In this document: piece by piece, positions 41,607-58,844 of the stretch | Numbering within the stretch: position 1 is the first letter of the stretch | Layout: every line of letters begins with the position of its first letter | Assembly (NCBI GenBank): GCA_016207605.1 | Contig: JACQPJ010000023.1 | Coordinates: forward strand, 1 to 63,601 | Origin: Elusimicrobiota bacterium | GTDB lineage: Bacteria > Elusimicrobiota > Elusimicrobia > UBA1565 > UBA9628 | Reading direction: 5' to 3' | Length of the DNA stretch: 63,601 bases | Made by a program: the position numbers and the translations under genes | Notes under the pieces: model-generated | Told to the model about the DNA's origin: nothing | The model's input: only the letters and a program-made list of their open reading frames with translations | Database searches by the model: none

Positions 41607-42653
41607 ATGAGCTGGATACTGTCGGCCGTCCTCGCGTTCGCCGCGGTCCGGCACGCCGGCGCGCAGACGGCGGCGGACCGAGGCGTGAGCGGCGTGGACG
41701 TCTACCGCTCCTCGATCCTAACCGTCGAGGAGGCGCGCCGCCGCTTTGGAGAGGGTCTGGATCGCTATGTCGCCTTGCGCGGGCGCGGCCGGCCCGCCGC
41801 GGACGCGGCCGCGGAAGCCTTGCGCGTCGCGCTGGAGCGCCAGGCCGGCTCCCTGCTCGGCGTGGCGCGCGCGGAGTTGACGATCTCGGAGCACTACGCG
41901 TCCGCCGGACGTTCCTGGTACGCGCTCTTTGACGTGGTGGACCGGGCCGACGCCGCGGCCCGGCTGGATTTCGCCCCGGCCCCGCGGGAGCGCCGGCCCG
42001 ACCCCGACGGCCTGTTGGCGCGCTGGCGCCGGCACGCGGCGCAAGGCGAGGAGCTCTCGCGCCGCGGCGCGCGGGCCAGCGAACGGCCGGCCTGCCCCGG
42101 CTATTTTTGTCTCTGGGGCGGCACTCCGGAGGCGGCGGCCGATCACCGGGCCTTCGTCGCGGGCGCGGCGCGGCGCGCGGGCGCCCTGCGCCGGGCGCTG
42201 GCCGACGCCGACGGCGGGCGGCGCGCCGCCGCCCTGTTCGTGCTCAGCTATTCCAGCTCCGGCCCCGTCGTCGTCGCGCTCTGCCGCGACGCGCTCTCCG
42301 ATCCGGACGCGCGCGTGCGCGGCGCGGCCCTGCAGATCCTGGCCGACGTCGCCAACGTTCATCCCGAGCTCCCCCTCCCGCTCGGCCGCGTCCTGGCTCG
42401 CCTCGACGATCCGTCCGGGACGGTGCGCGCGCGGGCCATGGGCCTGCTCGTGCCCCTGGCTGACCGGGACGCCTACCGACGGCGCATGTTTTCCGCCGCG
42501 CCGCGCCTGGCCTTCCTTTTGCGCCTTCGGCAGCCGGAGGGCGGCGACCTCGCCTTCACCCTCCTGCGCGTCCTCTCCCGCCAGGGCTACGCCCGCTCCG
42601 ACTACGCGGTCTGGGACGCCTGGGCGGCGCGGGCCGCGTCCGACAATCCGTGA
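41607..42653 (+). CDS. secreted HEAT-repeat hypothetical protein
   Basis: Signal peptide; LSDPDARVRGAAL and LDDPSGTVRARA. Confidence 0.7.
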   Translation: MSWILSAVLAFAAVRHAGAQTAADRGVSGVDVYRSSILTVEEARRRFGEGLDRYVALRGRGRPAADAAAEALRVALERQAGSLLGVARAELTISEHYASAGRSWYALFDVVDRADAAARLDFAPAPRERRPDPDGLLARWRRHAAQGEELSRRGARASERPACPGYFCLWGGTPEAAADHRAFVAGAARRAGALRRALADADGGRRAAALFVLSYSSSGPVVVALCRDALSDPDARVRGAALQILADVANVHPELPLPLGRVLARLDDPSGTVRARAMGLLVPLADRDAYRRRMFSAAPRLAFLLRLRQPEGGDLAFTLLRVLSRQGYARSDYAVWDAWAARAASDNP

Positions 42654-42723
42654 TCATCGCTTGCGCGATGCTCGCGCTCGCGATTCCGCCTAATGCGCGT
42701 GCTTGAGGAAAGGAAAATCAAAA

Positions 42724-42795
42724 TGTCCCCAGGAGGAATCGAACCTCCATCACCGACTTAGAAGGTCGGCGCTCTATCCATTGAGCTATGGGGAC
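42724..42795 (-). tRNA. tRNA-Arg(TCT)
   Basis: GTCCCCA acceptor stem, TAGCTCAATGGATAGAGC D arm, CCGAC-CTTCTAA-GTCGG anticodon arm, GGTTCGATTCC T arm; CCA not encoded. Confidence 0.96.
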
Positions 42796-42879
42796 GCAAA
42801 AGCTTAAGGCCCTAACTGCGATCGCGCCTTCATCCCGTCCTATGCGTGTCAGCAACTCTCCAGAGGACCGAGGCTGATT

Positions 42880-43626
42880 TTAACTCATTCCGTAAAGCAG
42901 TTTAAGGCTTGCCCCCCAGAGGACGAAACTCAACAGCCGCCGCAGGGATAAATTGGACAGGCGGCTTGAGCCAATTCGGGACCCGAACCAGCCTCCGACA
43001 AAAGCTGAAATCACCAGCGGACTCCATAGATGCGCTGCCGCGGGAGCTTCCTGCCAGCGTGCGATCAGAGCCGCGATCGAATTGACGAGGATGAACAGGG
43101 AGCTGGTCGCCGCCGCCTGCTTGGCGTCCGCCCAGCCCAGCAAGAGGATCAGGGGGCTCAGAAAAACACCGCCGCCGATGCCGATCATTCCGGAAACCAG
43201 CCCGATCACCATCCCTGAGATCACGGCTGCGGGGACAACTACCCGCGGCGGACATTCGACTTTATCGGGAAGATCGATCCATAGTCTGAAGGCCGCCAGG
43301 GTCAGAGATGTTCCCAAGAGGATGGAGAAAGCGGCCGACGAAAGCCGGATGAGTCCTCCAACATATGCCATCGGAATCGAGCCGAGGATAAAAGGCCAAG
43401 TCAGCTTCCAATGGAAACGGCCCGCCCTATAAAAAGCGACGGCGGCCAAAGAGGACACCAAAACATTGAGAACCAGCGCGCTGGCCGCGGCGCTGTCTTT
43501 TGGAAAGGAAACGAGCGATAAAATCGCCAGATATCCCGACGCGCCTCCGTGCCCCACCGAGGAATAAAGAAGGGCCACCAAAAAGACGGCGGCGTGGACA
43601 AGAAGAGTCTCTAATTCACGAGTCAT
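42880..43626 (-). CDS. TSUP (TauE/SafE) family permease
   Basis: YSSVGHGGASGY, GMIGIGGGVFLSP, AAATSSLFILVNS. Confidence 0.88.
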   Translation of the reverse strand: MTRELETLLVHAAVFLVALLYSSVGHGGASGYLAILSLVSFPKDSAAASALVLNVLVSSLAAVAFYRAGRFHWKLTWPFILGSIPMAYVGGLIRLSSAAFSILLGTSLTLAAFRLWIDLPDKVECPPRVVVPAAVISGMVIGLVSGMIGIGGGVFLSPLILLLGWADAKQAAATSSLFILVNSIAALIARWQEAPAAAHLWSPLVISAFVGGWFGSRIGSSRLSNLSLRRLLSFVLWGASLKLLYGMS

Positions 43627-44078
43627 GCCGCGCGCGCCGCAACCGGACTCAACGGAGCGATGCCGTCGCCGGCCTTCACCATTCCGCCCTGGATGACGCG
43701 GGCAAAAATGCCCTCCTTGGGCATCACGCAGTCTCCAGCCAGAGCATAGATCGCGCAGCGGGCGTGGCACTCCTTGCCGATTTGGGTCACCTCGAACACC
43801 ACGTCGCTTCCGATACGGATTCGGCTGCCGATAGGCAAGGAGACCAGGTCGATCCCGCGCGTGGTGACATTCTCGGCGAAGCTGCCGACGTTGACCTGGA
43901 GACCTTTGGCCCGCATCTTCTCGATGCTCTCCCAAGCAAGCAGGCTCACCTGGCGATGCCAGTTTCCGGCGTGAGCATCGCCTTCTATGCCGAAGTTCTC
44001 AAGAAACATCGCCTGCTCCACGTTCTTTTTTCGGATGCCTTTCCTGGCGCTTACGCAGACTGCGAGAATTGTTCCCAT
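43623..44078 (-). CDS. MOSC domain protein
   Basis: GIEGDAHAG.WHRQVSLL, FAEN, QIGKECH, CVMPKEG. Confidence 0.9.
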   Translation of the reverse strand: MGTILAVCVSARKGIRKKNVEQAMFLENFGIEGDAHAGNWHRQVSLLAWESIEKMRAKGLQVNVGSFAENVTTRGIDLVSLPIGSRIRIGSDVVFEVTQIGKECHARCAIYALAGDCVMPKEGIFARVIQGGMVKAGDGIAPLSPVAARAA

Positions 44079-44080
44079 AG

Positions 44081-45064
44081 CTATCCCCCTAATGAGCACA
44101 TAAAGCTTTCCCGGACTCCGCCGCCCTCGGGCGCCATCTGGTGGCGCTCGGGTTTCATGGCCACCACCTGGCGCAGCAACGCGGCGATCTCCGCGTCGCC
44201 GGCTCCAGCTCTGAGGGATTCCCTTAGATTTAGGCCCGCTTCCGAGGCCAGACAAGGCAGAAGCCGCCCCTTCGCGGTCAAGCGCAAGCGGTTGCAGCGG
44301 CCGCAAAAGTTGCAGCTCAAAGCGGAAATAAAACCCACGGAGCCCAGTCCAGCCGGAGACTTGAAGTACACCGCGGGACCGAACCCGAGGGGCTGTTCCG
44401 CCGGGCTCAGAGGCTCGAGCGGTCCGCAGCGCGCTTGGATTTCACGCAGCGGCAGCCAGCGCCGGGCATTGAAGAAACCCGTCTCTCCGATGGGCATGAG
44501 CTCGATAAAACGGACATGAACCGGCAAACGATGGGTGAGCGAGACAAAATCGGGAATTTCATCGGAATTGATGCCGTTCATCACCACGACGTTGATCTTG
44601 ACGGGCGAGAACCCCGCGTCGAGGGCCGCCCGGATTCCGCGCATGACGACCTCAAGGCCGCGGCGACGGGCAATCGCCGGGAATCGTTCGGCCCGCAGCG
44701 TATCCAGGCTCACGTTGACCCGCGTCAATCCGGCGCGGCGCAAATCCTCCGCCAGCTTGGATAGAAGCACCCCGTTCGTTGAAAGGGAGATATCCGTCAG
44801 GCCCGGAGTGGCCGCGATGGCTCCGAGCAGATTGACGATTCCTGGACGGGCCAGCGGCTCTCCCCCCGTCACGCGGAGCTTGTTGATTCCAAGGCTTGCC
44901 GCGACCCCGACGAGACGCACGATTTCCTTGTCGCTTAAGAGTTCTTCCGAAGCGGACCCAGCGACGCCTTGAGCGGGAAGACAGTAGACACAGCGCAGAT
45001 TGCAGCGGTCCGTGACCGATAGGCGGAGATAATCAATCCTGCGGCCGAAGGGATCGGTCAACAT
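44081..45064 (-). CDS. moaA: GTP 3',8-cyclase
   Basis: YLRLSVTDRCNLRCVYC, FCGRCNRLRLT, C-terminal GG. Confidence 0.95.
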   Translation of the reverse strand: MLTDPFGRRIDYLRLSVTDRCNLRCVYCLPAQGVAGSASEELLSDKEIVRLVGVAASLGINKLRVTGGEPLARPGIVNLLGAIAATPGLTDISLSTNGVLLSKLAEDLRRAGLTRVNVSLDTLRAERFPAIARRRGLEVVMRGIRAALDAGFSPVKINVVVMNGINSDEIPDFVSLTHRLPVHVRFIELMPIGETGFFNARRWLPLREIQARCGPLEPLSPAEQPLGFGPAVYFKSPAGLGSVGFISALSCNFCGRCNRLRLTAKGRLLPCLASEAGLNLRESLRAGAGDAEIAALLRQVVAMKPERHQMAPEGGGVRESFMCSLGG

Positions 45065-45669
45065 GGCTTCTTCCGCCTCGCCCTTTCGTACTCTTGCCTT
45101 GTGTCGAGGTCCACAAAAGAGAGGCCCGCCGGATCCGCCGATTTGACCTCCGCTTCCAGATAGAAACGAGTGCGGACGATATCGAAAAGCTCCTGAATCT
45201 TGAGCCGCTGGTCTTTGATCAGACATTCGATGACCCCGCGGCATTTTTTGGAGTAGATTCCGCACAGCGGCTGCGGCTTTTCACGCCAGACGGGGATGAC
45301 GGCGTCATAGCCCCGGCCCGCATCCCAAAGGTTTTTCACCAGCTTCGGCCGCAGAAAAGGCATGTCGCAGGCGCAGACGAACACATGCTCGGTCGCGGCG
45401 TGGGACAAACCGGACCAGATCCCGCCCAGGGAGTGAGACTCCGTCGTCATGTCCTTGACGACCCGCACATTTGTCTTGTTCCAAAATGGAAATGATTCCG
45501 GATTTTTCACTACGACAAGGTTGGACGGGAACATGCCCGAGAGGATCTCGACCACGCCCTCCACCATGGTCTTGCCTTTCCATGACGCCAAGGCCTTGTT
45601 GGAACCAAAGCGGCGGCTTTCGCCGCCCGCCAGCACCACGCCCGTGACCCCTTTCATCATTTCAGCCAT
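45058..45669 (-). CDS. mobA: molybdenum cofactor guanylyltransferase
   Basis: LAGGESRRFGSNKA, ACDMPF, QPLCGIY. Confidence 0.92.
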   Translation of the reverse strand: MAEMMKGVTGVVLAGGESRRFGSNKALASWKGKTMVEGVVEILSGMFPSNLVVVKNPESFPFWNKTNVRVVKDMTTESHSLGGIWSGLSHAATEHVFVCACDMPFLRPKLVKNLWDAGRGYDAVIPVWREKPQPLCGIYSKKCRGVIECLIKDQRLKIQELFDIVRTRFYLEAEVKSADPAGLSFVDLDTRQEYERARRKKPC

Positions 45670-46871
45670 CTAAAAGCCAGCGTGTCCCCTTGCCGCACGC
45701 GGCTCATGCCTATCGGAGCGATCGCCAGCGCGTTGGCCTTGCAGGCCATCCCAAGCATCGCGGAGCCTTGCGGCCGGATGATTTGAAGTTTGTAACCGTT
45801 CTCCTCCCGCTCGGCTTGGCAAAACAGGTACTGCTGCCTGTCCTTGGGTTTCGGGTAATCGTTGGCCGCCCTGCCGCTCAAGTGATAGCTGGGATATCCC
45901 GGAGCATGGCCTTGCAGCTTCTCCAGCGCCGGACGAACGAATTCTTCGAGGCAGACCATCACCGAAACGGGGTTTCCCGGCAGGCCGAAGACCAGTTTGC
46001 CGCCGCACACGCCGAACAAGAGAGGTTTTCCCGGCTTGATGGCAGCCTTCCAAAAGACCAGCCGCAAATCCAGCTGCTCCAGAACGGTCTTGGTGTAGTC
46101 GAAGTCGCCCGCTGAAACTCCGCCGGTGACTAGGAGCACGTCCGCGCCCGCCAGGGATTCTTCCAGGGCTTGCCGCATCAAAGGCGGGTCATCCTTGACG
46201 ATGCCTTTGTCCAGAGGGCTGGCTCCCCATCGGGAGAGCGCGGCAGCCAGGGTGGGACCATTGGAATTGCGGATCTTGCCCGGAGCCAGCCTATCCGCGA
46301 CTTCCATCAGCTCGTCGCCGGTCGCCAGAATAGAGACCCGCGGTCTTTTAACGACGAATACATGATCAATTCCCTGGGCGGCCAGCAGGGCCACTTCATA
46401 GGGACGAATCTTGATTCCCCTAGTCAAGATTCGCGCCCCGGAACGGATATCCTCGCCATGACGGCGAATGTGATCTCCGGACTCCGGAGATCGCAGGATG
46501 CCCACCCGCCCATCCCCTTGGTCTTTTGTCACTTCCCTCATCACGACGGCGTCCGCGCCTTTCGGAAGCGGCGCTCCGGTCATGATTTTGATCGCCTCGC
46601 CCGGACGCACCTCCAGTCGGGCCGCGGCACCCGCCCGAATAGTTTCTTTGATTTTAAGAAGCGCCGGAGCGTGTCGCGAGGCGAGGGAGCAATCTTGGAA
46701 CCTCACCGCGAATCCGTCCATCGCTGAATTGTCGAAAGGGGGAAGATCATCCTTGGCGAATATATCCTCGGCAAGCACGCGCCCGACCGATGCGTTGAGA
46801 TCCGCGTCTTCACCGGCAAGGGCATGCGCGCTGTCCAGGATCAGGTCAAGAGCCTTTTGAGGCGGGATCAC
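45657..46871 (-). CDS. moeA: molybdopterin molybdotransferase
   Basis: PPFDNSAMDGFA, IMTGAP, TGDEL, TGGVSAGDFD, KPGKP, GLPGNPVS. Confidence 0.95.
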   Translation of the reverse strand: MIPPQKALDLILDSAHALAGEDADLNASVGRVLAEDIFAKDDLPPFDNSAMDGFAVRFQDCSLASRHAPALLKIKETIRAGAAARLEVRPGEAIKIMTGAPLPKGADAVVMREVTKDQGDGRVGILRSPESGDHIRRHGEDIRSGARILTRGIKIRPYEVALLAAQGIDHVFVVKRPRVSILATGDELMEVADRLAPGKIRNSNGPTLAAALSRWGASPLDKGIVKDDPPLMRQALEESLAGADVLLVTGGVSAGDFDYTKTVLEQLDLRLVFWKAAIKPGKPLLFGVCGGKLVFGLPGNPVSVMVCLEEFVRPALEKLQGHAPGYPSYHLSGRAANDYPKPKDRQQYLFCQAEREENGYKLQIIRPQGSAMLGMACKANALAIAPIGMSRVRQGDTLAFRWLK

Positions 46872-47310
46872 GATAAGCCTCCAATTTGGTCTCTCCCGAG
46901 ACCACGCTTGCGATCATGTTGAAGGCAAAAATGAGGACGCCAAGGAACTGAAGGCCGCCCGAAGCCGCCAAGGCCCACACCCAGCGTCCCCCTTGCCAGC
47001 GATTAAGGCCGAAGAACAAGGCCATCCCCGCGGTGGCTATATTGGCGATGACGAGGTGGCTCCACGCGAGCCGTTCCGAATAAAGCCGCCGTCCGAAAAA
47101 AGCCGGCACGACGCGGTACATCATTCCGTACATGGTCATGGAGACCCAACCCAGCAGCATCAGGTGAGCATGGGATGGTATGAGATAGTACTCGAGGCCG
47201 CGCCACTCGCCGCCCGTCCAGCTCAGCATCATCGCCAATCCCAGGACGGCGCTCGCAACTAAATAAATAACCGCGGCCAATAGGAAGTAGTTGGCGTATT
47301 TTCCCGTCAT
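46846..47310 (-). CDS. small 4-TM protein resembling part of heme-copper oxidase subunit I
   Basis: HAHLMLLGWVS..YG..Y..VP, second His in AWSHL. Confidence 0.65.
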   Translation of the reverse strand: MTGKYANYFLLAAVIYLVASAVLGLAMMLSWTGGEWRGLEYYLIPSHAHLMLLGWVSMTMYGMMYRVVPAFFGRRLYSERLAWSHLVIANIATAGMALFFGLNRWQGGRWVWALAASGGLQFLGVLIFAFNMIASVVSGETKLEAYRDPASKGS

Positions 47311-47816
47311 GGATTATCTCCAGTCGCCTCGGAATCTTCCATCAGCGCAAGGCAGTCTCGGGCGAAGGCCCCCGGATTCGCGTGATGCATAAGACAGGCG
47401 AAGCCGACCGTCTCCGTGCCGAAGGCCGGACACTCGAAACAGCCGGGGCCAAAATACCTGATAAAGACGGTTTTGACCCGCGGATGCATCTGGATGAGAG
47501 CGCCGACGTTGGCATCCAGCAGTTCCATTATCTCCTGCGGCTGCGACGCATTAGGCTGGGGCCGATCGGCCGCAATGGCTGGCCCTGGAGATTCCGATGG
47601 CGGCGAGGTCTGGAATGCAGCCTGGTTCAGGGCATCTAGGAACGATTCCAGGGGGACTCGGTGCAATTTGCATCCCCGCTCGATCGTGGTGAGCTGCCCA
47701 AAAGTTTTTCGAAGGAGAGGGTTGAACAGGGCACGGAAGCCGAATCGGGCAAAAACGGCTTGCGCCGACGGATAGCGCTCAAAGACTTCGGCGACCTTCC
47801 GCTCCTTGGCGATCAT
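47307..47816 (-). CDS. tandem DUF1858-like domain protein
   Basis: VAEVFERYP…VF…GF; second unit VGALIQMHP…GCFECPAFGTETV..AC..H. Confidence 0.7.
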   Translation of the reverse strand: MIAKERKVAEVFERYPSAQAVFARFGFRALFNPLLRKTFGQLTTIERGCKLHRVPLESFLDALNQAAFQTSPPSESPGPAIAADRPQPNASQPQEIMELLDANVGALIQMHPRVKTVFIRYFGPGCFECPAFGTETVGFACLMHHANPGAFARDCLALMEDSEATGDNP

Positions 47817-48337
47817 CTTGCCGCCTCGACCCGGTCTTTTTCATGCCCTTCTCCTTGAAGCATGGCCAGCGCGTGCGGCACGAGGTTGAGGACGGCCTTG
47901 AGCGAATCGGTCGCTCCGCGCGGGCTTCCGGGAAGATTGAGGATGAGAGATCTCCCGCGCGCGCCGGCGATTGCCCGCGACAACACGGCCCGCTCGTTCC
48001 TTTTAGACCCCTCAAGGCGCATCCGCTCCACGAGGCCCGGGAGTTCCTTGTCCAACGCTCCGCGCGTCGCCTCCGGCGTCACGTCCCGAGGACCGAGGCC
48101 CGTTCCGCCCGTGGTCAAAATGAGCGCAAGACCCTTGCCGTCAGACCAGTCCAAGAGCGTTTCCTTGATTTTCTCCCGCTCATCGGGCTCCACCGCGGAT
48201 TGCGCCACCCTCCAGCCTTGAGATTCAACCAGTCTTCGCAAGGCAGGGCCGCTTTCATCACGCCGCAGGCCCTTTGAGCAGCGGTCGCTGATCGTGAGTA
48301 TCCCCACTGTAATTTTCAAACCATTTCCTTTGGTCAT
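47813..48337 (-). CDS. mog: MogA/MoaB family molybdopterin adenylyltransferase
   Basis: [33 protein letters not shown]. Confidence 0.88.
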
Positions 48338-48813
48338 AGGTCTCTCCCGCGGATGAAATGCCCGGACCGGCCGCCCTCTTTTTCCACCAGATAGATCGGG
48401 CCGATCAGCATCTCTTTGTCCACGGCTTTTGCCATGTCGTAAATGGTCAAACAGGCCACGCTCACGGCGGTTAAGGCCTCCATTTCAACGCCGGTTCTGC
48501 CTTGGGTGCAAACTGTCGCTTGAACGCATAGGCGATCCGGCTTGGATTCGAATGTTAAATCAACGGAATCCAGGTTGAGGCTATGGCAAAGCGGGATCAG
48601 CTCATCGACCCGTTTGGCCGCCATGATGCCGGCGATCTTGGCGACCGCCATGACGTCGCCCTTGGGAACTTCCCGGTCCCTTATCTGCCGAAGAACTTCG
48701 GGACTCATCCGGACCTCGCCGTAGGCAATCGCCTTGCGCGCGCTCACGGGCTTTGACCCAACGTCCACCATGCGGGCATTTCCGTTGGAATCCAAGTGGG
48801 TCAATGTCTTCAT
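48334..48813 (-). CDS. moaC: cyclic pyranopterin monophosphate synthase
   Basis: [40 protein letters not shown]; start ATG 48813. Confidence 0.95.
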
Positions 48814-48866
48814 AAAATAAAATGCCAGTCCCTCAAGACGACGGGACTGGCGCGCTTGAATTTCAT
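48810..48866 (-). CDS. putative 18-aa leader peptide [18 protein letters not shown]
   Basis: ATG 5 nt after the riboswitch AGGAG; its TGA overlaps the moaC ATG (ATGA). Confidence 0.55.
48814..48851 (-). terminator. intrinsic terminator-like hairpin inside the leader ORF
   Basis: GCCAGTCCC-N10-GGGACTGGC followed by ATTTTATTTT. Confidence 0.6.
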
Positions 48867-48870
48867 TCAT

Positions 48871-49000
48871 TCTCCTTTCTAACCTCGAGAGGTCAGCTCC
48901 TTTCGGAGCTGGCCCTGTTCCCCCGGCTGCCTGGGATTGGCCCTGCGTCCATATCCTGAATTCCGATCAGGGGTTAGGAGCGCGGGCTCGGAGCCAACTC
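48871..49000 (-). ncRNA. molybdenum cofactor (Moco) riboswitch
   Basis: Minus strand CTCCGAGC…CCTAA…TATGG…GGCC…AGGG-CCAGCTCC-GAAA-GGAGCTG-ACCTCTCG…GAAAGGAG, immediately upstream of moaC. Confidence 0.85.
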
Positions 49001-49007
49001 TAGGAGT

Positions 49008-49214
49008 CTACGTTTTGCTTTCCTCCGGCAATTTTTTAGCCTCGGTTTTTGCCTCTTCCACATTGCGGGAAGCTTCCTTGAGTCCGTTCTTGAATGCATT
49101 GACGGACTGTCCGATCGCCCTCGCCACTTCCGGAACCCGTTTGGCTCCGAATAGAAGCAGCGCCACGAGCAGAATAACCAGCAGTTCCGAGAATCCTATG
49201 TCGAACATCGCCAT
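49008..49214 (-). CDS. tatA: twin-arginine translocase TatA
   Basis: FDIGFSELLVILLVALLLFGAKRVPEVARAIG..V..FK. Confidence 0.93.
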   Translation of the reverse strand: MAMFDIGFSELLVILLVALLLFGAKRVPEVARAIGQSVNAFKNGLKEASRNVEEAKTEAKKLPEESKT

Positions 49215-49253
49215 TCACCTCCCGATCCGTCTTGCGGCATAAGACAAGCCTCT

Positions 49254-49829
49254 TTACTCTTCATACAGTTCCTTGTAGCGGGCAGGATGACTCTTCCTGA
49301 AATCTTCCAATGATTTTCGCCGCGCGGCGGCCCACGCCTTTTGGTTGTTGAGCTTATGGTGATTGGAGTGATACACCAGGAACTCGTATATTTTTTTGCC
49401 TTCCGGATTTGAGATATCGCAGCCTGGCTTGGACATCATCCGCTTGACGTAGCGTTTCCAGATTCCAGCCTCGATCTGCCACACCTTTTTATCCCTGAAT
49501 AACTCCGGCCTGTCTTTCTTGAGAGCCGCGATGGCGGCATCCTGTGCGCCGGGACTGGCGCCCTCGGGTTCCACGAACTGCGAATTAAGCGGCCGCGCGG
49601 CCGTATGACATTTAGCGCACTTGACGCTCAGCAGGGCGTATCCGCTTTGAGTGTCCTTGGGGTATCCCGAAACGTCCAAGGCCGCAGATCCCGAATCGTT
49701 GGCATAAGGATTGGCGAGCGCCTTGGCCTTCTCGTCCTGTCCGCCCTTATCGGCTGCTCCGGCGCTTGCGCCCAGCATCGCGACGGTCGTTGCGACCATG
49801 ACTGCCGCAATCCGCTTGAATATCTCCAT
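49254..49829 (-). CDS. periplasmic monoheme c-type cytochrome
   Basis: Signal peptide, CAKCH, W.RYVKRMMSKPG; GGAGGA RBS. Confidence 0.8.
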   Translation of the reverse strand: MEIFKRIAAVMVATTVAMLGASAGAADKGGQDEKAKALANPYANDSGSAALDVSGYPKDTQSGYALLSVKCAKCHTAARPLNSQFVEPEGASPGAQDAAIAALKKDRPELFRDKKVWQIEAGIWKRYVKRMMSKPGCDISNPEGKKIYEFLVYHSNHHKLNNQKAWAAARRKSLEDFRKSHPARYKELYEE

Positions 49830-49840
49830 CAGTCCTCCCA

Positions 49841-50605
49841 TTACCCAGCTTGCAACGCTTCCGCCATTTTCGGACGGTCAAAAATCGCGTACGCCAAAAG
49901 GGTTGTTTCGTAGAGCCCCATCAATGCTATGGAAAGCAGGACTTGGCTGAAGGCGGTGGGGTCGGGAGTTATTACGGCTGAGAATATGGCGATGCCAAGA
50001 TAGACAGAACGCCTGGAATCCCGCAGTTGCGTCAAATTGAGCACTTCCAAGCGCACCAGGAACCCGAGGACCACCGGCATCTCAAAGGGTATCCCGAAAA
50101 CTAAGAGCATCGTCAGAACGAAAGTGTAGAAGCGGTCAAAAGTCAGCTGCATGACCCCGCCGGCGGCGACGCCCAATCCCAACAGGACGCGCAGGCTGGC
50201 GGGAATGATCAAGGCGTAAGCGAGACACATGCCCAGCAGGAAAAGAGCCGTCCCGGCAATGATGACCGATGCAATCGTCGTTTGTGATTCCCGGGCAAAC
50301 GCCGGAGCCAAGAAAGCGAACAGCTGATAGAGGAGATATGGGGACAGAATGGCCGACGTCAGCGCCAAACCGACTTTTAGAATGACCCAGGCCGGCTCGA
50401 ATGCGTCCAGGAAGACCAGCCGCGTTCCGGGCGGCAGAAGTCCCGTGGAAAGCCAGCGGAAGGCTCGTATGGAAAACGAATTTTCAAAGGAGGGAAGCAT
50501 CAAAACGATGCCCAGAACCAGGAAAAAGACGATCAAGGAACGCAGGAGTCGTGTCCTAAACTCGTCGAGATGATCTAAAAACGGCTTGGGTTCGTCTTGG
50601 ATCAT
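49841..50605 (-). CDS. tatC: twin-arginine translocase TatC
   Basis: FLDHLDEFRTRL, FLAPA, FEMP, AVITPDP; start ATG 50605. Confidence 0.9.
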   Translation of the reverse strand: MIQDEPKPFLDHLDEFRTRLLRSLIVFFLVLGIVLMLPSFENSFSIRAFRWLSTGLLPPGTRLVFLDAFEPAWVILKVGLALTSAILSPYLLYQLFAFLAPAFARESQTTIASVIIAGTALFLLGMCLAYALIIPASLRVLLGLGVAAGGVMQLTFDRFYTFVLTMLLVFGIPFEMPVVLGFLVRLEVLNLTQLRDSRRSVYLGIAIFSAVITPDPTAFSQVLLSIALMGLYETTLLAYAIFDRPKMAEALQAG

Positions 50606-50615
50606 GCGCCGTCCA

Positions 50616-51896
50616 TTAAAAGTCCAGCGTGGCCTGAAAGAAGGCCCAATCCCTCTCCTTATTTCCAACCGTGTTCTTAACGAATCGTCCGGCAAAAAAG
50701 CGGGAATACCCGAACCACAACCCGATCGTGTCGCGGAATTTCGCGCGGACATGCAGGTCGACTTCGTCGCCGATGTTGCGTCCCGAGCCGCCGGTCACGT
50801 CGCGGGCGATGACCGCGCCCGTCTTGTCGTACCAGGCATCGAAGCTGTGGTCCAAAAGAAACTTATGGTAGTCCGCCTGAACCTTCCATCCGGCCGCGGG
50901 AACGATGGAGGCTGTTCCTTTGAAGTCATGACCGTTCCTCCAATAGAAGATGTCCTGGTAGCCCTGATAAAGATGGCCGGTGGGAAAGAGCGGATCGAAG
51001 GTTTGGATTTTGTTGTCGTCGGGCTTGGAATCACCCGAGGCGTAATCGTACTCAACGCCAACGCGCGGTTTATACCGGGATTCGAAGGCATAGCCGCCCG
51101 TCGCCGCCATGGCCCAGGCGCGCGCCTGCTGGCCGGCCTTGCGCCCGAACTGCCAGGCCGCCTCGCCCGAGTAGTCCCAGGCCCCGGGAGTCCCCTTGAT
51201 GCGCGCGCCCAGCGTGCGATCGCTTAAATTGCCCTTGTTGCCCAGCTCGGCCGTCTGCGTCCCATCGCCGAAGTCCCGGCCCAGGACGTAAAGGTCCGCC
51301 TCGTGCTTGGGGACCGCCTTGCAGGAACCATAGAGACCCCAAAAGGTTTGATTGCGCCTCACATCGGCCGTCTGCTTGACGTTGGCGGCGAAAGCATCCA
51401 CGGCCGCCTTCTCAAAGCGATAGCGCAGGCGTCCGCCGTCAAAGGCTCTTCCTATGTTGCTCCAGTCCAGAGGTCCCACCAGCCTTTGGTCGCCGTACTG
51501 AAGCTCCATGCGGCCCGCCCGCAAATCGAGCGGTCGCGCGAAAAGGTTGAGAACCTCCAAATATCCCTGGTGCAGGTCCACATTGGCCGTGTTGGCGGCG
51601 GTATTGGCCTCGGAACCAAAGACGCGCGCGTCCTGCAACTGCAAATAGCCCTTGATATCGTGTCCGGCGTCGGCCTCGACTCCCAGGCGGACGCGCAAGA
51701 GCGTCTGGTCCTGGCCGTGTTTCCCGCCGGGCGTGGCGTAGCTCAGGACGTTGGTCGACTCCTGCCTCGCCCGGATTTGTCCGCCGAACTTGATGGGGAG
51801 GGAGCCCGTCTGGCTCCAGAGCGACGCTGGAAACAGCATCCCCGCAAGGAATGCCGGCGATGCCGATATCCTAGGCCCTTTTCTATTCACTACCAC
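50616..51896 (-). CDS. alginate-export-family outer-membrane beta-barrel (porin)
   Basis: GQIRARQE, QLQDAR.FG, DLHQGY, GRMELQYGDQRLVG..DWSN.GR.FDG, YASGD, C-terminal F. Confidence 0.85.
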   Translation of the reverse strand: MVVNRKGPRISASPAFLAGMLFPASLWSQTGSLPIKFGGQIRARQESTNVLSYATPGGKHGQDQTLLRVRLGVEADAGHDIKGYLQLQDARVFGSEANTAANTANVDLHQGYLEVLNLFARPLDLRAGRMELQYGDQRLVGPLDWSNIGRAFDGGRLRYRFEKAAVDAFAANVKQTADVRRNQTFWGLYGSCKAVPKHEADLYVLGRDFGDGTQTAELGNKGNLSDRTLGARIKGTPGAWDYSGEAAWQFGRKAGQQARAWAMAATGGYAFESRYKPRVGVEYDYASGDSKPDDNKIQTFDPLFPTGHLYQGYQDIFYWRNGHDFKGTASIVPAAGWKVQADYHKFLLDHSFDAWYDKTGAVIARDVTGGSGRNIGDEVDLHVRAKFRDTIGLWFGYSRFFAGRFVKNTVGNKERDWAFFQATLDF

Positions 51897-52975
51897 TCCT
51901 GCCCCTTCTCCTTCGGCATAAGACTGAAGAGGTAATCAATCAACGCGTGGACCTCCTCCTCATCCATGAGGGCCTTCCACGAGTTCATGTGCAGCCGCGG
52001 AGCGATGCCGTTCGGGTCTGCCGGCGCGGCGTTGCGGCCGTTGAGAATGACTTTCTTGATCTCGTCTTCGGTGAAGCCCTCCGCCACCCGGTTCAAGGCC
52101 GGGATCGGGTCCGTCTGCGAGCCCGGGTTGGGCACGCCGCCCTTGGCGTCGGCGCCGTGACAGGCCCCGCAGCCGTAGCGTTGGTAGACGATCTTGCCCG
52201 CGATGAGCGGGTTCTTGGGCTTGGCCGGGATGCCGTGATCGAGCAGAAGGTTGTTCCAGACTGAAAAGGACTTGGCCGGACCGCGCTCTTGGGATCCCCC
52301 CTCCCATACGGCCAGCGCGAAGGGAATCACGCTCCCTCCGGCGAACGCCGCGCCGCCGGGAGCTCGGAGCTTGCGGCGAAGGACCACGGTCCAGGTTCCG
52401 TCTTTCCAGTCGCCCGCCCCGTCGACGGCCTGCTCCCTGCGCCGACCGATCGTGCCCCAGCCTTCGGCCACGAGATCCTCGGGCCTGACGGAATACTTGA
52501 TCGTGTTGTGGATGGCGTCCGGGCGGTAGTAGTCCGAGTATGCCTTCGCGTAGTGCTCCGGCTTGGCCATGGCGGCGCTCCAGCGCCACACGTTGACCGG
52601 ATTGCCTTTCTCGCCCATCATCGGCGCGGGCATCGAGCCGGCCGCGAGCGGGAACTCCAAGGCGACGCCGTCCACGAACTGGCCGGACAGCTCCAGGTCC
52701 TCGCTCTTGCTCGGGTCCGCCCAGCGCAAGCGGAAGAAAATCTCGCTCGCCGTGCGCAGGCTTTGAACCTCGACGCTGGAAATGGCGCCTCCCCCCTGGG
52801 GAACGACGAGCTTCTGCGGCGCCACTGCGACCTTGACGGCGGCGGCCTTCTCCCAGGCCGAGGCGTAGGGGTCAAGTCCGAGTTTGTCGGTCTTATTCGA
52901 GACCAGGTTCTGCTGCGCCGCCAAGGCGGGAACCGCCGCCGCGATGAGAACGAAGAGATGACGCATGCGCTTCAC
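51890..52975 (-). CDS. gamma-type subunit: ethylbenzene dehydrogenase-like heme b domain fused to cytochrome c
   Basis: FRLRWAD, P.PMMG..G.PVNVWRW, WKDGTWTVVLRRKL, AVWEG..QERG..K; C-terminal CGACH. Confidence 0.82.
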   Translation of the reverse strand: MKRMRHLFVLIAAAVPALAAQQNLVSNKTDKLGLDPYASAWEKAAAVKVAVAPQKLVVPQGGGAISSVEVQSLRTASEIFFRLRWADPSKSEDLELSGQFVDGVALEFPLAAGSMPAPMMGEKGNPVNVWRWSAAMAKPEHYAKAYSDYYRPDAIHNTIKYSVRPEDLVAEGWGTIGRRREQAVDGAGDWKDGTWTVVLRRKLRAPGGAAFAGGSVIPFALAVWEGGSQERGPAKSFSVWNNLLLDHGIPAKPKNPLIAGKIVYQRYGCGACHGADAKGGVPNPGSQTDPIPALNRVAEGFTEDEIKKVILNGRNAAPADPNGIAPRLHMNSWKALMDEEEVHALIDYLFSLMPKEKGQEW

Positions 52976-53571
52976 GACGCACCTCCCAGGAGCGAGCGGC
53001 ACAATGCCGACAGCTGCAGATAGAATTCCGGCGCGCCGGCCGCGTGGAGCTTGCGCGCGATGACGCCGAAGGCCTTGAAGACGATCTCCTCGCGCAGTTT
53101 CGTCGACGCGTCAACGACGACGTCCCGCTGCCGGCTCCAACCGTTCAGCTCGGCATGAACGCGCTTGATTTCGAGATAGGCCAGGAACTCGAGGACCGCC
53201 GGCAATCCGTCGGCGCGCTCCTCGGACTCGACGCCGAAGGCTTTATAGAAACCCGCCAGATCGGCGATCTTCTTGGCTTGCCCGTAGGGATCATGAGTCG
53301 CGTGGAACGCCAACTCGAGCGGGCAGGCCGGCGCGGGGCCAAACAGACGGAAGTGCTGCGCTTCCAGTTCGGCGGGCGGCGTCGCGCTCAGGGCCTTCTC
53401 AAGCTTATTGAGGCCGCTCGCGGGCGCGGCGCGGGAGTCGCGTGCGGCGCGCAGCAGCGCGTCAAACCGCGGCCGCCACGCCGCGTCCGGATAGCCGAAA
53501 CCAGCCGAGACCAGACGTAAAGCGATGGCCCGGGGCGGGGCGGGTACTTTTTCCACGGCAGCGGTGGTCAT
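52972..53571 (-). CDS. TorD/DmsD/NarJ-type molybdoenzyme chaperone
   Basis: IADLAGFYKAFG…ERADGL…LEFLAYL. Confidence 0.85.
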   Translation of the reverse strand: MTTAAVEKVPAPPRAIALRLVSAGFGYPDAAWRPRFDALLRAARDSRAAPASGLNKLEKALSATPPAELEAQHFRLFGPAPACPLELAFHATHDPYGQAKKIADLAGFYKAFGVESEERADGLPAVLEFLAYLEIKRVHAELNGWSRQRDVVVDASTKLREEIVFKAFGVIARKLHAAGAPEFYLQLSALCRSLLGGAS

Positions 53572-53579
53572 GATCTCTC

Positions 53580-54716
<1,137 letters not shown>

Positions 54717-54729
54717 CGCATCCCCCCTG

Positions 54730-57700
54730 TCAGGCCTTGATCTCGACGAACTCGCCCTTCAAGTACGCTTCCATGGCTTGCTTGGTGTAGCCGGGCCGGT
54801 AGCCGTCCTTGGCGGGAGTCCAGAGCGCCACGCCCTCCGTGCCGCCGTTCTCGGCCTTGGAGATCTTGACGAACGACTCCTTCGGCGCGCCGACGGCGCA
54901 GTGGATGTCCGCGGCGAAGCCCTTGCCGATGACCTGGCCGAAGTACTCCTTGCGCGCCATCGAGTCCGTCAGACAGGTCGGGCGCAGCCAGGCGCGCGTG
55001 CCGGACTGGTGGCTGCCGCAGCGGAACATCGCTTGATAGCCGGTGCGCGGGTTGCGCGCGAGCTTGTCGGCGTTGTTCTCATGCCCCTCCACCGAGCCGT
55101 AGGTCGCCACGTACATGTGAAACCAAGACCGCGCCACGCCGCGCTGCAGGCCCCAGTAGTACCGGGCGCGCATCTTCGCGCGGTGCACCTTGTAATCCGC
55201 GGGCTTGTCCTGCCAGCCGCGGAAGGGACGATCCTCGGGATCGGCGTCGATCCAGACATAGTCGCCGTCATCGATGCCGAGCTCCTTGGCGTCGACGGGG
55301 TTGAGGTCCACGTAGCCCTCGCCGACCCAGGGCATGCGCTTGTCGCGACGATGCATGTCGCCAAACGGCCCGAACCAGGCCGAGATGATATCCACGTCCA
55401 CGGGCGTCGTGTGCGCGCCGTGCCGGAACTTGGGCGTGATGTAGGACAAGGTCATGCCGATCTTCTTGCCCGGATGCGCGGTCCTGGTCAGCTCCGCCGG
55501 CGTGACGGTCACGTTGCGGACCTGCCGGACTTCGACCGACAGATCGCCGCGCTTCAGGCCGTAGCCCTCGGGCGGCGTGGGCCGGATGAGATTGGGCGCC
55601 CCCGTGACGATCACGTTCGGCTCGTACGGCGTCGCGTCCACCGGCTCGCGGTGCACGGGCAGGTTCTCGCCGTGCTCGATGAATTCCGGCTCGTCTCGAT
55701 ACATCTCGATGCGCCCGGACTTCGTGTAGTGGGGCCGGCCCTCCACGCTCTGCTCCCACCCCATGATCTTGGGGTAGGTGCGCGTCATAATCAGCGCGGG
55801 AATGCCTTTCTTGGCGTCGGCGTGCAGCGTCTCGATGTCGTAGCCCTTGGTGGTGCTGGAGTTGTCGAGGATGCGCTGGAGGTATACCTCGACCCTGTCC
55901 TCGTGCACCCACTTCCAGTAGTCGATGAAGCCCTTGTCGCCCGTGATGCCGGCAAGCGCCTTGGCCACGCCGGCCAGAACCGCGATGTCGGGCTTGGAGT
56001 CGTGGAGGCGCTTGAGCGGCGTCTTGGGAAACATCTGGATGAACGGGTTGGTGACGGCCGCCGTCATGTCCGGCATCTTCGTCTCGGCCCAGGAATCCAC
56101 GGGGAAGACGATGTCGGAGTATTCGCAGGAGGCCGTCCACCACCACTCGCTCACGCAGATCGTCTCGATCTTGGGCAGGGTGTTCATCACGACGTCGTGA
56201 TGCCATTTGAGGTTGCCGAGGATGGAATTGCCGTTGGAGAACCACATGAACTTCGTGGGCGTGGGCATGTGCGTCTTGCCGGTGAAGTTCTTGTTGCCCA
56301 CGCGCAGCGGCCGGTCGCCGTAGTTGTAATAGTGCGCCGACTCGTAGCGGAAGTAGGGCTTGTAGACCGCGTGCGCGTGCTCGTCGGTCGCGATGTGGAA
56401 GGGATCCTCGGCGATGTAGTACGGCAAGCCGTTGAAGTAGGCGCCGCGGTAGTTGCCCGCGTAGGAGCCGATGTTGCCGCCGTGCGTGCCGATGTTCCTG
56501 GTCAGCGAAGCGAGCAGGAAGCCCGTCCTGTCTTTCTGGTCGTTATTGAAGAAGTGGTTCGGCCCCATGCCGTAAACGAGCAAGGTTTTGCCGCTGTTTT
56601 TGGCGATCTCGCGGGCCAGCCACGTCACGTTCTCGGGCGAGGTGTGGCAGATCGCGCCGGTCGCCTCGGGCGTGTAGTGTGAAGCCTGCTCCTTGATCAG
56701 ATCGAAAACCGGGCGGACCTCCACGCTCTTGCCGTCCAGGAGTTTGATCGTGAATCTGCCCTCGAGGGCGTAGTTTCCGGCCTTGGCCGCCGCGTCGCGC
56801 GTGACGATGACCGGCGCGTTGGCGCCCGCGTCCCAGGCGACGAAGTCGCCCCATTCCTCGCGCAGTTCCTGCGCGGAGATTTGATTGTCCTGCCGGTAAG
56901 CCGATGGAGGCTTCTCGCCTTTCTGCAGCATGACCGTATTCTTGAGCACCGCATTCTTGTAGCCGGGGATGTAATCGGCCGGCTTGAGATTCTTCAGAGT
57001 GTCCGATCGGACCAGGAGCGGCAGGTCCGTGTGCCCCTTGATGTACTCTTCATCGTAGAGCCTCTCCTTAATGATCACGTTGACCATGCCGAGCGCGAAG
57101 GCCGGGTCCGTTCCCGGCCGGGCGATGATGACCCTGTCGGCTTTGTTCGAGGTGGACTGATACTCCGGGGCGATCGTCACGATCTTCGTTCCATGCAGGC
57201 GCGCCTCGGTGAGCCAGTGGGCGTCCGGCATCTTTGTCGAGATCCAGTTCATGCCGATGCAGACGATGAGGTTCGCGTTTTCGGCGGTCGCCAGGTCGAA
57301 GTCGATGGTCTGCTGGCCGCAGGCCATCGTGTGGCCGGGCGGCAGGTCCGTGTGCCATGAATAGCTGTCCCAGATGCGGGCGCCGACGGCCTTGTCCGGT
57401 CCGACGCCGCGAATCTTGCGGTCGAGAAGGGCTATCGAATTCGAGAAGCGGTTCATGCCGAAGATGCGCGTGGCCCCCAGCAGAGGCATGCCGCCGCGAA
57501 ACTTCAGCGTCTGCACGCCCGCGCCCTTCATCGCCTCGAGCATGTCCTCGTCGTAGCCCTGTTGGCGCAGCTTTTCCTTGCCTTCGTCGCCGTTATAGAA
57601 GCGCGCGGTCCGGTCCATGGCCGTGGCCGCGTACTTGAACGCCTCGTCCCACGACACCTTGACGAAAGACTCCTTGCCGCGGTTGCGGTACCTCTCGGGC

Positions 57701-58173
57701 ATGCGCCCGTCGCCGTCGCGCGGGAATCCCGAGTCCGCCCATTCCTTCCAGCCCTTGCGAACCGAGGGATATTTGAGGCGGCGCGGACCGTACACCTTGC
57801 GGATCAGCGCCAGGCCTTTTTGGCACAGACGCGGATCCCAACGGTGCGAGGACTGATTGCCGTAAAGATCCTTGGCCTTTCCGTAGCCGTAGGACGGGCC
57901 GAAGAACATGGCCACGCCGTTCTTGGTGTGCGCCTTGAGCAGGCAGTTGTGCGTGTCGTTGGGCGCGCACAGGAAGCAGAACTCCCCATCGGTGGCGACG
58001 AGGTCGCGATAAAGTTTTTCCCAGCCGCGATCAGGATAGCGGTCAAGGGGATTGCCCGCGGTCTCGGTGGGCTTGAGCAGGGCGAACAGCGGCTCGGTCG
58101 CCAGCAGCATCAACGCGCCGGAGCCGGAATACTTCAGGAACTCCCTGCGGCTGATCTTTTTCTTCATGTCCAT
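54730..58173 (-). CDS. Tat-exported Mo-bis-PGD alpha subunit, NxrA / periplasmic NarG-like
   Basis: SRREFLK Tat motif, CAPNDTHNC…PRLCQKG Fe-S motif, YSWHTDLPPG Mo-ligand Asp region; 1147 aa. Confidence 0.9.
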   Translation of the reverse strand: MDMKKKISRREFLKYSGSGALMLLATEPLFALLKPTETAGNPLDRYPDRGWEKLYRDLVATDGEFCFLCAPNDTHNCLLKAHTKNGVAMFFGPSYGYGKAKDLYGNQSSHRWDPRLCQKGLALIRKVYGPRRLKYPSVRKGWKEWADSGFPRDGDGRMPERYRNRGKESFVKVSWDEAFKYAATAMDRTARFYNGDEGKEKLRQQGYDEDMLEAMKGAGVQTLKFRGGMPLLGATRIFGMNRFSNSIALLDRKIRGVGPDKAVGARIWDSYSWHTDLPPGHTMACGQQTIDFDLATAENANLIVCIGMNWISTKMPDAHWLTEARLHGTKIVTIAPEYQSTSNKADRVIIARPGTDPAFALGMVNVIIKERLYDEEYIKGHTDLPLLVRSDTLKNLKPADYIPGYKNAVLKNTVMLQKGEKPPSAYRQDNQISAQELREEWGDFVAWDAGANAPVIVTRDAAAKAGNYALEGRFTIKLLDGKSVEVRPVFDLIKEQASHYTPEATGAICHTSPENVTWLAREIAKNSGKTLLVYGMGPNHFFNNDQKDRTGFLLASLTRNIGTHGGNIGSYAGNYRGAYFNGLPYYIAEDPFHIATDEHAHAVYKPYFRYESAHYYNYGDRPLRVGNKNFTGKTHMPTPTKFMWFSNGNSILGNLKWHHDVVMNTLPKIETICVSEWWWTASCEYSDIVFPVDSWAETKMPDMTAAVTNPFIQMFPKTPLKRLHDSKPDIAVLAGVAKALAGITGDKGFIDYWKWVHEDRVEVYLQRILDNSSTTKGYDIETLHADAKKGIPALIMTRTYPKIMGWEQSVEGRPHYTKSGRIEMYRDEPEFIEHGENLPVHREPVDATPYEPNVIVTGAPNLIRPTPPEGYGLKRGDLSVEVRQVRNVTVTPAELTRTAHPGKKIGMTLSYITPKFRHGAHTTPVDVDIISAWFGPFGDMHRRDKRMPWVGEGYVDLNPVDAKELGIDDGDYVWIDADPEDRPFRGWQDKPADYKVHRAKMRARYYWGLQRGVARSWFHMYVATYGSVEGHENNADKLARNPRTGYQAMFRCGSHQSGTRAWLRPTCLTDSMARKEYFGQVIGKGFAADIHCAVGAPKESFVKISKAENGGTEGVALWTPAKDGYRPGYTKQAMEAYLKGEFVEIKA

Positions 58174-58175
58174 GA

Positions 58176-58640
58176 TTATCCTCCAGCGTTGCGAGCGGCA
58201 TCCGCCAGACTTGCCTTCTCCAAAGCTTCCCGCAGGACCTTTTCGGATCGCAGGACCGCTTCGTGGATGAGACAGGGGGTATTTCCAACGCAGCCGCGCA
58301 GCTCAAGCAGGCACTCTCGCCAAGCGGGGCGCGGCTCTTCCAAAGACCGCACGATTTCCGACAAGGAAATCTTCCGGGCAGGTCTTGCCAAGGCGTATCC
58401 GCCTCCAGGACCTCGTTGGGACACGAGCAATCCCCGGCGGCCCAACCTCTGAAAAATCTTAGATAAGTAGTTCTTCGGCAACTTCTGAGCCTTTGCCGCA
58501 TCCTCGACCAGACAGAATCCGTTTCCAGGTCGTTTGGCCAGGAAAAGCATGCCCTGGAGCGCATATCTGGCTGTTTGAGAGAGCCGGATAAGACGGAATT
58601 CCGCCTGTGTTTGTCCGTTTTTTGTAACCACTCCCTTCAT
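58176..58640 (-). CDS. Rrf2-family Fe-S transcriptional regulator
   Basis: YAL..M.FLA, YLSKIFQRL…GL..SQRGPGGGY.LARP, CLLELRGCVGNTPCLIH. Confidence 0.92.
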   Translation of the reverse strand: MKGVVTKNGQTQAEFRLIRLSQTARYALQGMLFLAKRPGNGFCLVEDAAKAQKLPKNYLSKIFQRLGRRGLLVSQRGPGGGYALARPARKISLSEIVRSLEEPRPAWRECLLELRGCVGNTPCLIHEAVLRSEKVLREALEKASLADAARNAGG

Positions 58641-58762
58641 CCCTCCAGGGAGCTATTCAAGCGTGAGACACCCTCATCGTTTCATGTCGTCGCAACGAAC
58701 CCGCCATTGCATTCGGCTCGGAGAATAAGAAGACTCGGAGGGCATGAAAGTTGCTGTTTGGC

Positions 58763-58794
58763 AAGCCAATCGGCATCTAATTGCCGATTGGCTT
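58763..58794. other. perfect 13-bp inverted repeat (hairpin) at the right edge of the respiratory island
   Basis: AAGCCAATCGGCA-tctaat-TGCCGATTGGCTT; no clear U-tract. Confidence 0.5.
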
Positions 58795-58844
58795 ATAGGC
58801 AAGATTTTTGACTCGTCAGGAATTGCTGGCGGGGCTTGGTGCCG

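Follow-up and report, generated by a model that had tools for sequence, protein, structure and literature searches.

The Moco RNA motif (RF01055; PMC2408646) is the described system closest to the locus analyzed here, with which it shares the P1–P5 aptamer, a Shine–Dalgarno sequence (SD) in P1, and a location upstream of moa genes. Moco RNAs followed by intrinsic terminators were already noted in that work; the sections covered here give no mechanism for these terminator-type examples and leave direct Moco binding untested even for the E. coli RNA. In contrast to those RNAs, the SD of our locus opens an upstream open reading frame (uORF) and not a gene, and the terminator lies inside this uORF, with no predicted antiterminator.

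Several other systems resemble parts of this arrangement. The B12 riboswitch of M. tuberculosis ppe2, which differs from our locus in its aptamer class, is a translational OFF switch acting on a uORF (uPPE2) that precedes an SD-less gene; PPE2 needs translation of the uORF via an AUGA overlap, and reinitiation was established by experiment (PMC11260477). The M. tuberculosis pe20 Mbox with its uORF rv1805A likewise joins a translational riboswitch on a uORF to premature termination, but termination is Rho-dependent there and the peptide is conserved, whereas here the terminator is of the intrinsic type and the peptide is not conserved (PMC12810186). In the E. coli pyrBI attenuator, as described in PMC4824070, a terminator in a leader ORF is blocked by the translating ribosome, as we propose for our locus; pyrBI, however, senses UTP by polymerase pausing; our locus showed no suitable pause, and its aptamer would act on initiation. 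Finally, the "direct translation attenuation" of Barrick and Breaker 2007 (PMC2258182), with the ribosome binding site in the aptamer core, corresponds to the front half of the locus. The same paper assigns a terminator within 10 nt of a start codon to a "dual" class and, in the part covered, none of its five categories routes a direct-translation aptamer via a uORF onto a terminator.

Our literature search, which covered mostly open literature, including part of PMC2408646, returned no riboswitch with an SD-gated uORF containing an intrinsic terminator. The relay by a uORF and an AUGA overlap is already known; within the sources covered, the predicted intrinsic terminator inside such a uORF is the new element. 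The locus can plausibly be read as a ribosome-gated terminator built from known parts, conserved in one sister and derived.

Anatomy of the Locus

The window (the whole 63,601-nt stretch of Elusimicrobiota DNA analyzed) carries the switch, the leader ORF, and the regulated genes on the minus strand (Table 1), and the nine genes first counted downstream of the switch do follow it on that strand. The original prediction, made from the sequence alone, placed the SD of a Moco riboswitch 5 nt before an 18-codon ORF and not next to moaC. The covariance model agreed, aligning over its full length (1–135) with E 2e-10 and a score above the gathering cut-off of 36 bits, and the coordinates support the spacing, the leader ATG (48866) lying 5 nt downstream of the SD. 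The aptamer has the features of the Moco RNAs in PMC2408646, namely the P1–P5 junction, the GAAA tetraloop of P4, the P2 receptor, and P3; according to a hypothesis of that paper, the presence of P3 would suggest the Moco rather than the Tuco subtype.

Table 1. Features of the switch and of its operon in the window.
Feature	Coordinates	Strand	Evidence or content
Moco RNA aptamer (RF01055)	48856..49005	−	cmscan, 54.9 bits; P3-containing, GAAA tetraloop in P4, receptor-like motif in P2
Shine–Dalgarno GAAAGGAG, 3′ strand of P1	48872..48879	−	Rfam alignment; anti-SD hybrid −9.0 kcal/mol
Leader ORF, 18 codons	48810..48866	−	Start at the position of the moaC start in relatives; TGA overlaps moaC ATG
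9-bp hairpin, predicted intrinsic terminator stem	48824..48851	−	Fold; pairs kept in G301
U-rich tract A-U4-A-U4	48814..48823	−	Sequence and G301 alignment; directly before moaC ATG
moaC, SD-less, first regulated gene	48334..48813	−	TIGR00581/NF006870 match from residue 1
Eight further overlapping genes	42880..48337	−	mog/moaB-type adenylyltransferase, DUF1858, COX1-like membrane protein, moeA, mobA, moaA, MOSC, TauE/SafE exporter
tatA	49008..49214	−	TIGR01411 above cut-off; stop 14 nt before P1 5′ strand
Upstream same-strand genes	49254..58640	−	Rrf2 regulator, NXR-like DMSO-reductase type II alpha/beta/chaperone/gamma, porin, tatC, small CxxCH protein

In the Rfam alignment, the GGAG of the SD pairs with CUCC in P1. 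The leader TGA (48812–48810) and the moaC ATG (48813–48811) form an ATGA overlap. The moaC start itself is found 58 nt past the aptamer SD, outside the 3–10 nt at which a main gene would be translated directly; as in the ppe2 type, a uORF starts under the riboswitch SD, and an SD-less gene is joined to it by an AUGA overlap. The best anti-SD hybrid of moaC reached −4.4 kcal/mol versus −9.0 kcal/mol for the leader, both obtained with a generic anti-SD, as the assembly yielded no 16S 3′ tail. Without an SD at normal spacing, moaC has a weaker GAGGG 12–14 nt upstream, within the 3′ arm of the hairpin. The claim that moaC has no SD of its own is supported by these energies, but it fails as a proof of coupling: of 51 genes that start no more than 60 nt from a Moco terminator, 15 are without an SD and 13 of these have no coupled leader. 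Similarly, about 16% of shuffled leaders land in the ATGA frame with the frame open, so by itself the overlap is weak evidence.

The unpaired probability of the SD GGAG ranged from 0.05 to 0.68, shifting with the folding window chosen, and its opening cost of 4.5 kcal/mol falls within the 3.4–6.9 kcal/mol of relatives with a direct SD, so the locus is not set apart by this measure. In the MFE fold, the SD is paired with a second anti-SD-like stretch (49007–49001, minus strand) that immediately follows the tatA stop. Ribosomes finishing tatA would occupy this stretch, and tatA translation could in this way be coupled to SD access.

The sequencing runs listed for this region are four DNA runs from one study, and contigs from two runs cover it. 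A contig of run X1, which may be the source sample of the window, spans 48616–49400 with five differences, all beyond 49300, and confirms the sequence. Two contigs of run X2, at a depth below 4, show a 44-base skip in 48785–48830 and a single U-tract change at 48822; these differences at the hairpin are probably assembly or read errors.

A Terminator-Like Hairpin Conserved in a Sister Locus

The leader had been described as crossing a 9-bp hairpin and a U-rich tract before ending in the ATGA overlap, and both sequence and fold bear this out. The stem starts 15 nt past the A of the leader AUG and has nine perfect pairs (seven G-C and two A-U), with two more possible beyond a bulge. Its fold energy of −20.1 kcal/mol corresponds to a z score of −4.3, equaled by none of 200 shuffles, and the hairpin is not due to chance. 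It is the top terminator-like element among the 11 listed candidates, at nine sites, on the minus strand of 42600–58900. A standard terminator scan missed it, most likely because of its 10-nt loop, the maximum of the scan being 8 nt. The z score, the U-tract, and the conserved pairs together predict an intrinsic terminator after the aptamer.

The same layout, with an 18-codon leader and the same overlap with moaC, was found in G301, a genome of the same family but another genus, whose MoaC is 85% identical to that of the window. Its upstream operon differs and resembles alternative complex III. The two leaders are separated by 12 substitutions, all in positions 8–43; the SD, the spacer, and the first 8 leader bases are unchanged, and length, frame, and overlap are kept. 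Five substitutions fall in the stem, where five of nine pairs are constant, three are changed on one side, one on both sides, and none is broken. A hairpin of equal stability was retained in 2.2% of 5000 trials with 12 random substitutions of the same spectrum, and the comparison indicates selection on the hairpin. Both the start and the open frame were kept in 40% of such trials, so selection on the leader ORF is not supported statistically.

The leader peptide differs in G301 at 7 of 18 residues. A functional leader peptide was considered and rejected, as 9 of the 12 substitutions are non-synonymous. The leader has no regulatory codon run of the kind found in trp/leu-type attenuators, nor is an antiterminator predicted.

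Outside the window, the combination of leader and hairpin was detected in G301 only, both around moaC in 401 genomes of the phylum and by DNA search in 401. G301 was also the sole other genome with this combination when RF01055 was searched in 101 genomes of the order. A metagenome pattern scan yielded 29 loci with no further case of the layout, and a viral pattern scan gave 0 matches.

Origin of the Segment

In the closest other aptamers (L175, L207, L193, L168/L208, and L182/L209), the SD leads straight into moaC with spacers of 3–5 nt; in L207, the same 5-nt spacer as in the window is followed by the moaC start. In a midpoint-rooted moaC tree with 25 rows, G301 is the partner of the window (97/94), and the pair falls within these direct-SD lineages at moderate support (86/77 and 82/84). 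With direct-SD loci as its nearest other relatives, the 53-nt segment is derived, and the simplest history would be one insertion of ~53 nt that shifted moaC into another frame and left the old start ahead of a new hairpin. Seven bases of the hairpin 5′ arm (window 48850–48843) are identical to the first moaC codons of the direct-SD sister L175, hinting at an origin of the hairpin by inverted duplication of the former moaC start region.

Survey of Moco RNAs

Moco RNAs were gathered from Rfam genome searches and pattern scans, one set of 256 matches contributing 30 loci. To place the aptamers, we used an HMM derived from 95 Rfam-hit aptamers, which kept 254 of 257 hits and added a further 78; four more were without an SD anchor. 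De-duplication at 90% led to 303 Moco RNAs, with a predicted terminator within 100 nt in 148.

In most of these 148, among them L199 and L196 of the window's own family, a helix links the arm or loop of the terminator with the P5/SD strand. By the strength of this antiterminator helix, given as relative energies that omit the initiation term, the window ranks 142 and G301 143 of the 148, and the aptamer-to-platform pairing gain of the window (0.0) is the lowest of all. Folds in which the terminator was forbidden revealed no alternative helix shared by the window and G301. In predicted secondary structure, the alternative helix from aptamer to terminator arm or loop that marks a terminator/antiterminator switch was thus not seen; because the ungapped-helix measure overlooks bulged antiterminators, and the weak class includes such cases, the absence of an antiterminator is a prediction. 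Helix strength and pairing gain replaced a duplex-versus-shuffle measure that was noisy and preserved the composition carrying the signal. The whole-transcript energy gap did not differ between weak and strong cases (p 0.36), nor did it separate the locus from strong classical terminators such as L022.

In the 155 terminator-less Moco RNAs, the ATG lies at a spacer of 4–9 in 62 cases versus 10–21 in 27, and the leader start, at 5 nt, is thus placed as in real genes. Within the terminator set, an ATG at 4–9 was found in 12 of 54 weak- and 9 of 94 strong-antiterminator cases (p 0.03); leaving out the window and G301 gives 10 of 52 versus 9 of 94 (p 0.08), with rank tests at p 0.09–0.11, all under thresholds set post hoc and with related loci that are not independent. 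Leader ORFs are at most a minority solution and not the general mechanism of Moco terminators. The original prediction had asked for the same layout to be sought in other Moco RNAs: a leader stop meets the next start in 2 of the 51 genes close to a terminator, those of the window and G301.

In addition, L006 and L003 have tupA-like frames opening at an ATG 5 and 10 nt past the Moco SD, with a hairpin and U-tract in the first 20 codons. These hairpins could be intragenic terminators or could simply result from codons of a signal peptide.

Proposed Mechanism and Alternatives

We propose, with a probability of about 0.5, that the switch gates the entry of ribosomes into the leader ORF and that translation of the leader relays the signal by read-through and reinitiation. 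With Moco present, P1 would hide the SD, the leader would be left untranslated, and the hairpin would form; transcription would end near 48815, so that the nine cofactor genes are cut off and the upstream enzyme/Tat message has a clean 3′ end. The footprint of an initiating ribosome has its edge about 15 nt past the AUG. When Moco is scarce, a ribosome loading at 48866 would extend as far as the base of the stem, 15 nt beyond the AUG. It would block the hairpin or melt it and, at the AUGA overlap, start again on moaC. We infer each of these steps, that is, ligand binding, termination, leader translation, read-through, and reinitiation; the leader peptide as such is probably irrelevant.

The argument for this reading is that polymerase must somehow get past a strong conserved hairpin that precedes nine genes, and the sole moving part nearby is the SD with its well-spaced AUG, which favors gating by the ribosome. 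Leader translation as the relay is favored by the anatomy, by the improbability of a start at 48870, by the selected hairpin, and by the failure to find an RNA antiterminator. Counting the mechanism above together with a relay by translation only, it is quite likely that translation of the leader matters. Of the original proposal that a translational switch had been converted into an attenuator, the anatomy has held up, and the mechanism, which the conserved hairpin and the lack of a predicted RNA antiterminator favor, we continue to treat as a model. Its accompanying view, that Moco RNAs typically act by SD sequestration and that a terminator here marks a conversion, was overstated, as terminators after Moco RNAs had already been described in PMC2408646.

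Only one site resembling the consensus pause G-10/Y-1/G+1 lies downstream of the SD; it coincides with the AUG, where a pause would come too soon for the ribosome to catch up. Timing is the main difficulty for ribosome gating, since in E. coli a terminator 30 bp past the AUG became only ~10% less efficient with translation, and natural attenuators depend on pauses (PMC4824070). Rho is present in the genome. Six clean terminator hairpins, picked by eye from 87 candidates near stop codons, start 13–26 nt past the stop; taking stop-to-terminator distance as a proxy for coupling (PMC7858274), this spacing leans toward coupled transcription and translation, on few clean terminators and crude gene calls. 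The parts covered of the literature on runaway transcription, including PMC7858274, do not name Elusimicrobiota.

The alternative that survives best, although we consider it somewhat unlikely, is a relay by translation only, resembling that of ppe2, in which the leader is translated, moaC is reached by reinitiation, and the hairpin acts as a fixed but leaky terminator or marks a processing end. The hairpin would then set the ratio of cofactor to enzyme message and hide the weak SD of moaC so that moaC depends on the leader. The E. coli data on terminators close to a start codon (PMC4824070), the interrupted U-tract, the lack of a well-placed pause downstream of the SD, and the location of the sole SD-like stretch for moaC in the 3′ arm are all consistent with this. 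On the other hand, a hairpin of −19 to −20 kcal/mol followed by 8 U in 10 nt would be expected to waste most transcription of the nine genes if unrelieved. Moreover, the stem lies 15 nt from the AUG, half the distance used in the E. coli test and approximately at the edge of the initiating ribosome.

The locus could also be an ordinary terminator-type Moco switch whose antiterminator escaped detection, being bulged, tertiary, or co-transcriptional, or whose switching depends on a protein factor; the leader ATG would be vestigial and moaC translated independently of an SD. Terminator-type Moco RNAs are known (PMC2408646) and make up 148 of the 303 in our survey, SD-less downstream genes are common, the position of the leader ATG is inherited, and conservation of the ORF is not significant, most of its substitutions (9/12) being non-synonymous. 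We nevertheless judge this improbable: the best candidate helix has 7 bp, includes G-U pairs, and is different in G301, and the four changes in the 5′ arm of G301 are matched inside the hairpin, with no shared alternative helix to account for them. Ribosomes would also be expected to load at a strong SD with a well-spaced AUG once P1 is open.

An extended moaC of 178 residues starting at the in-frame ATG 48870, which would place the hairpin inside moaC and dispense with the leader, was rejected in line with the original choice of the leader start, for despite a frame that is open in the window, the spacer would be 1 nt, the frame runs into a stop in G301 after four codons, this ATG and moaC are in different frames in L207, and the MoaC profile begins at 48813.

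Returning to the ribosome-gated terminator, the locus may, more tentatively than the mechanism itself, exemplify a third Moco expression platform, in which the ribosome serves as the antiterminator and the SD gates the start of an ORF covering an intrinsic terminator. Here it would have arisen when a terminator was inserted after the former start of moaC, and other lineages would have acquired it independently. Equally tentative candidates are L215/L242 (Dehalococcoidia-class) and the look-alike L167, all three with a start (ATG or GTG) at +5, as well as L237/L343 and L355, in all of which the leader stops at the foot of the terminator, and L006, with a terminator in the first codons of its tupA-like gene. 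If true, this would provide a one-step route from a translational to a transcriptional riboswitch, with no complementary strand to evolve, and would account for switching in some terminator-type riboswitches that have no antiterminator. It would also let a mid-operon switch silence nine genes and leave the upstream enzyme message untouched. The element is a 200-nt cassette with natural controls in its direct-SD sisters and its cousins with RNA antiterminators, Moco-dependent E. coli reporters are available for testing it, and it would probe how near an AUG a ribosome can suppress intrinsic termination.

Operon Context

Since the tatA stop is 14 nt from P1, the switch lies within a polycistronic unit. 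Gaps among the upstream same-strand genes are ≤39 nt, and a promoter scan found no sigma-70 promoter on the minus strand of 42600–59000. The downstream genes (moaC, mog-type, moeA, mobA, and moaA) are those expected behind RF01055. The mid-operon position claimed at the outset is real, but it is ancestral: tatA directly precedes the aptamer in the hairpin-less relatives L175 and L207 also, and lies 101 nt away in L168, so this position is older than the terminator.

The tatA gene is repeatedly linked to Moco regulation in this phylum. In L016 and L022, a Moco RNA with a terminator-like hairpin is found before tatA-moaC and not between them. The tatA-moaC gaps of L011, L012, and L017 contain shortened Moco-like sequences, below the Rfam threshold, that keep P5 and the SD and are possibly degenerate or minimal Moco variants.

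The Moco cluster (42880–48813, minus strand) includes MOSC and TauE genes but lacks both moaD and moaE, and MoaE (PF02391) was not found in the genome, whose assembly is 75% complete; a different route of sulfur insertion is possible. The tRNA-Arg(TCT) at 42724–42795 (minus strand) lies 84 nt past tauE on the same strand, where it could be co-transcribed with the regulated genes, and a tRNA-Arg(TCT) also flanks the G301 cluster. One AGG codon is present in each leader, at different positions in the window and G301.

The GC content of the locus is 55–67% versus 70–81% in the flanks. The alpha subunit (54730–58173, minus strand) matches subunit A of nitrite oxidoreductase over its full length (PDB 7b04, E 7e-274), and the NXR-like set, with beta, chaperone, a gamma–cytochrome c fusion, porin, and Tat genes, is found in the low-GC stretch beside the tRNA-Arg. 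NxrA or nitrate reductase has been reported from groundwater Elusimicrobia (10.1101/765248). Finally, the unannotated CxxCH protein of 195 residues (49254–49841) has paralogues on contigs C51 and C20 of its own genome, with 51% and 34% identity, respectively.
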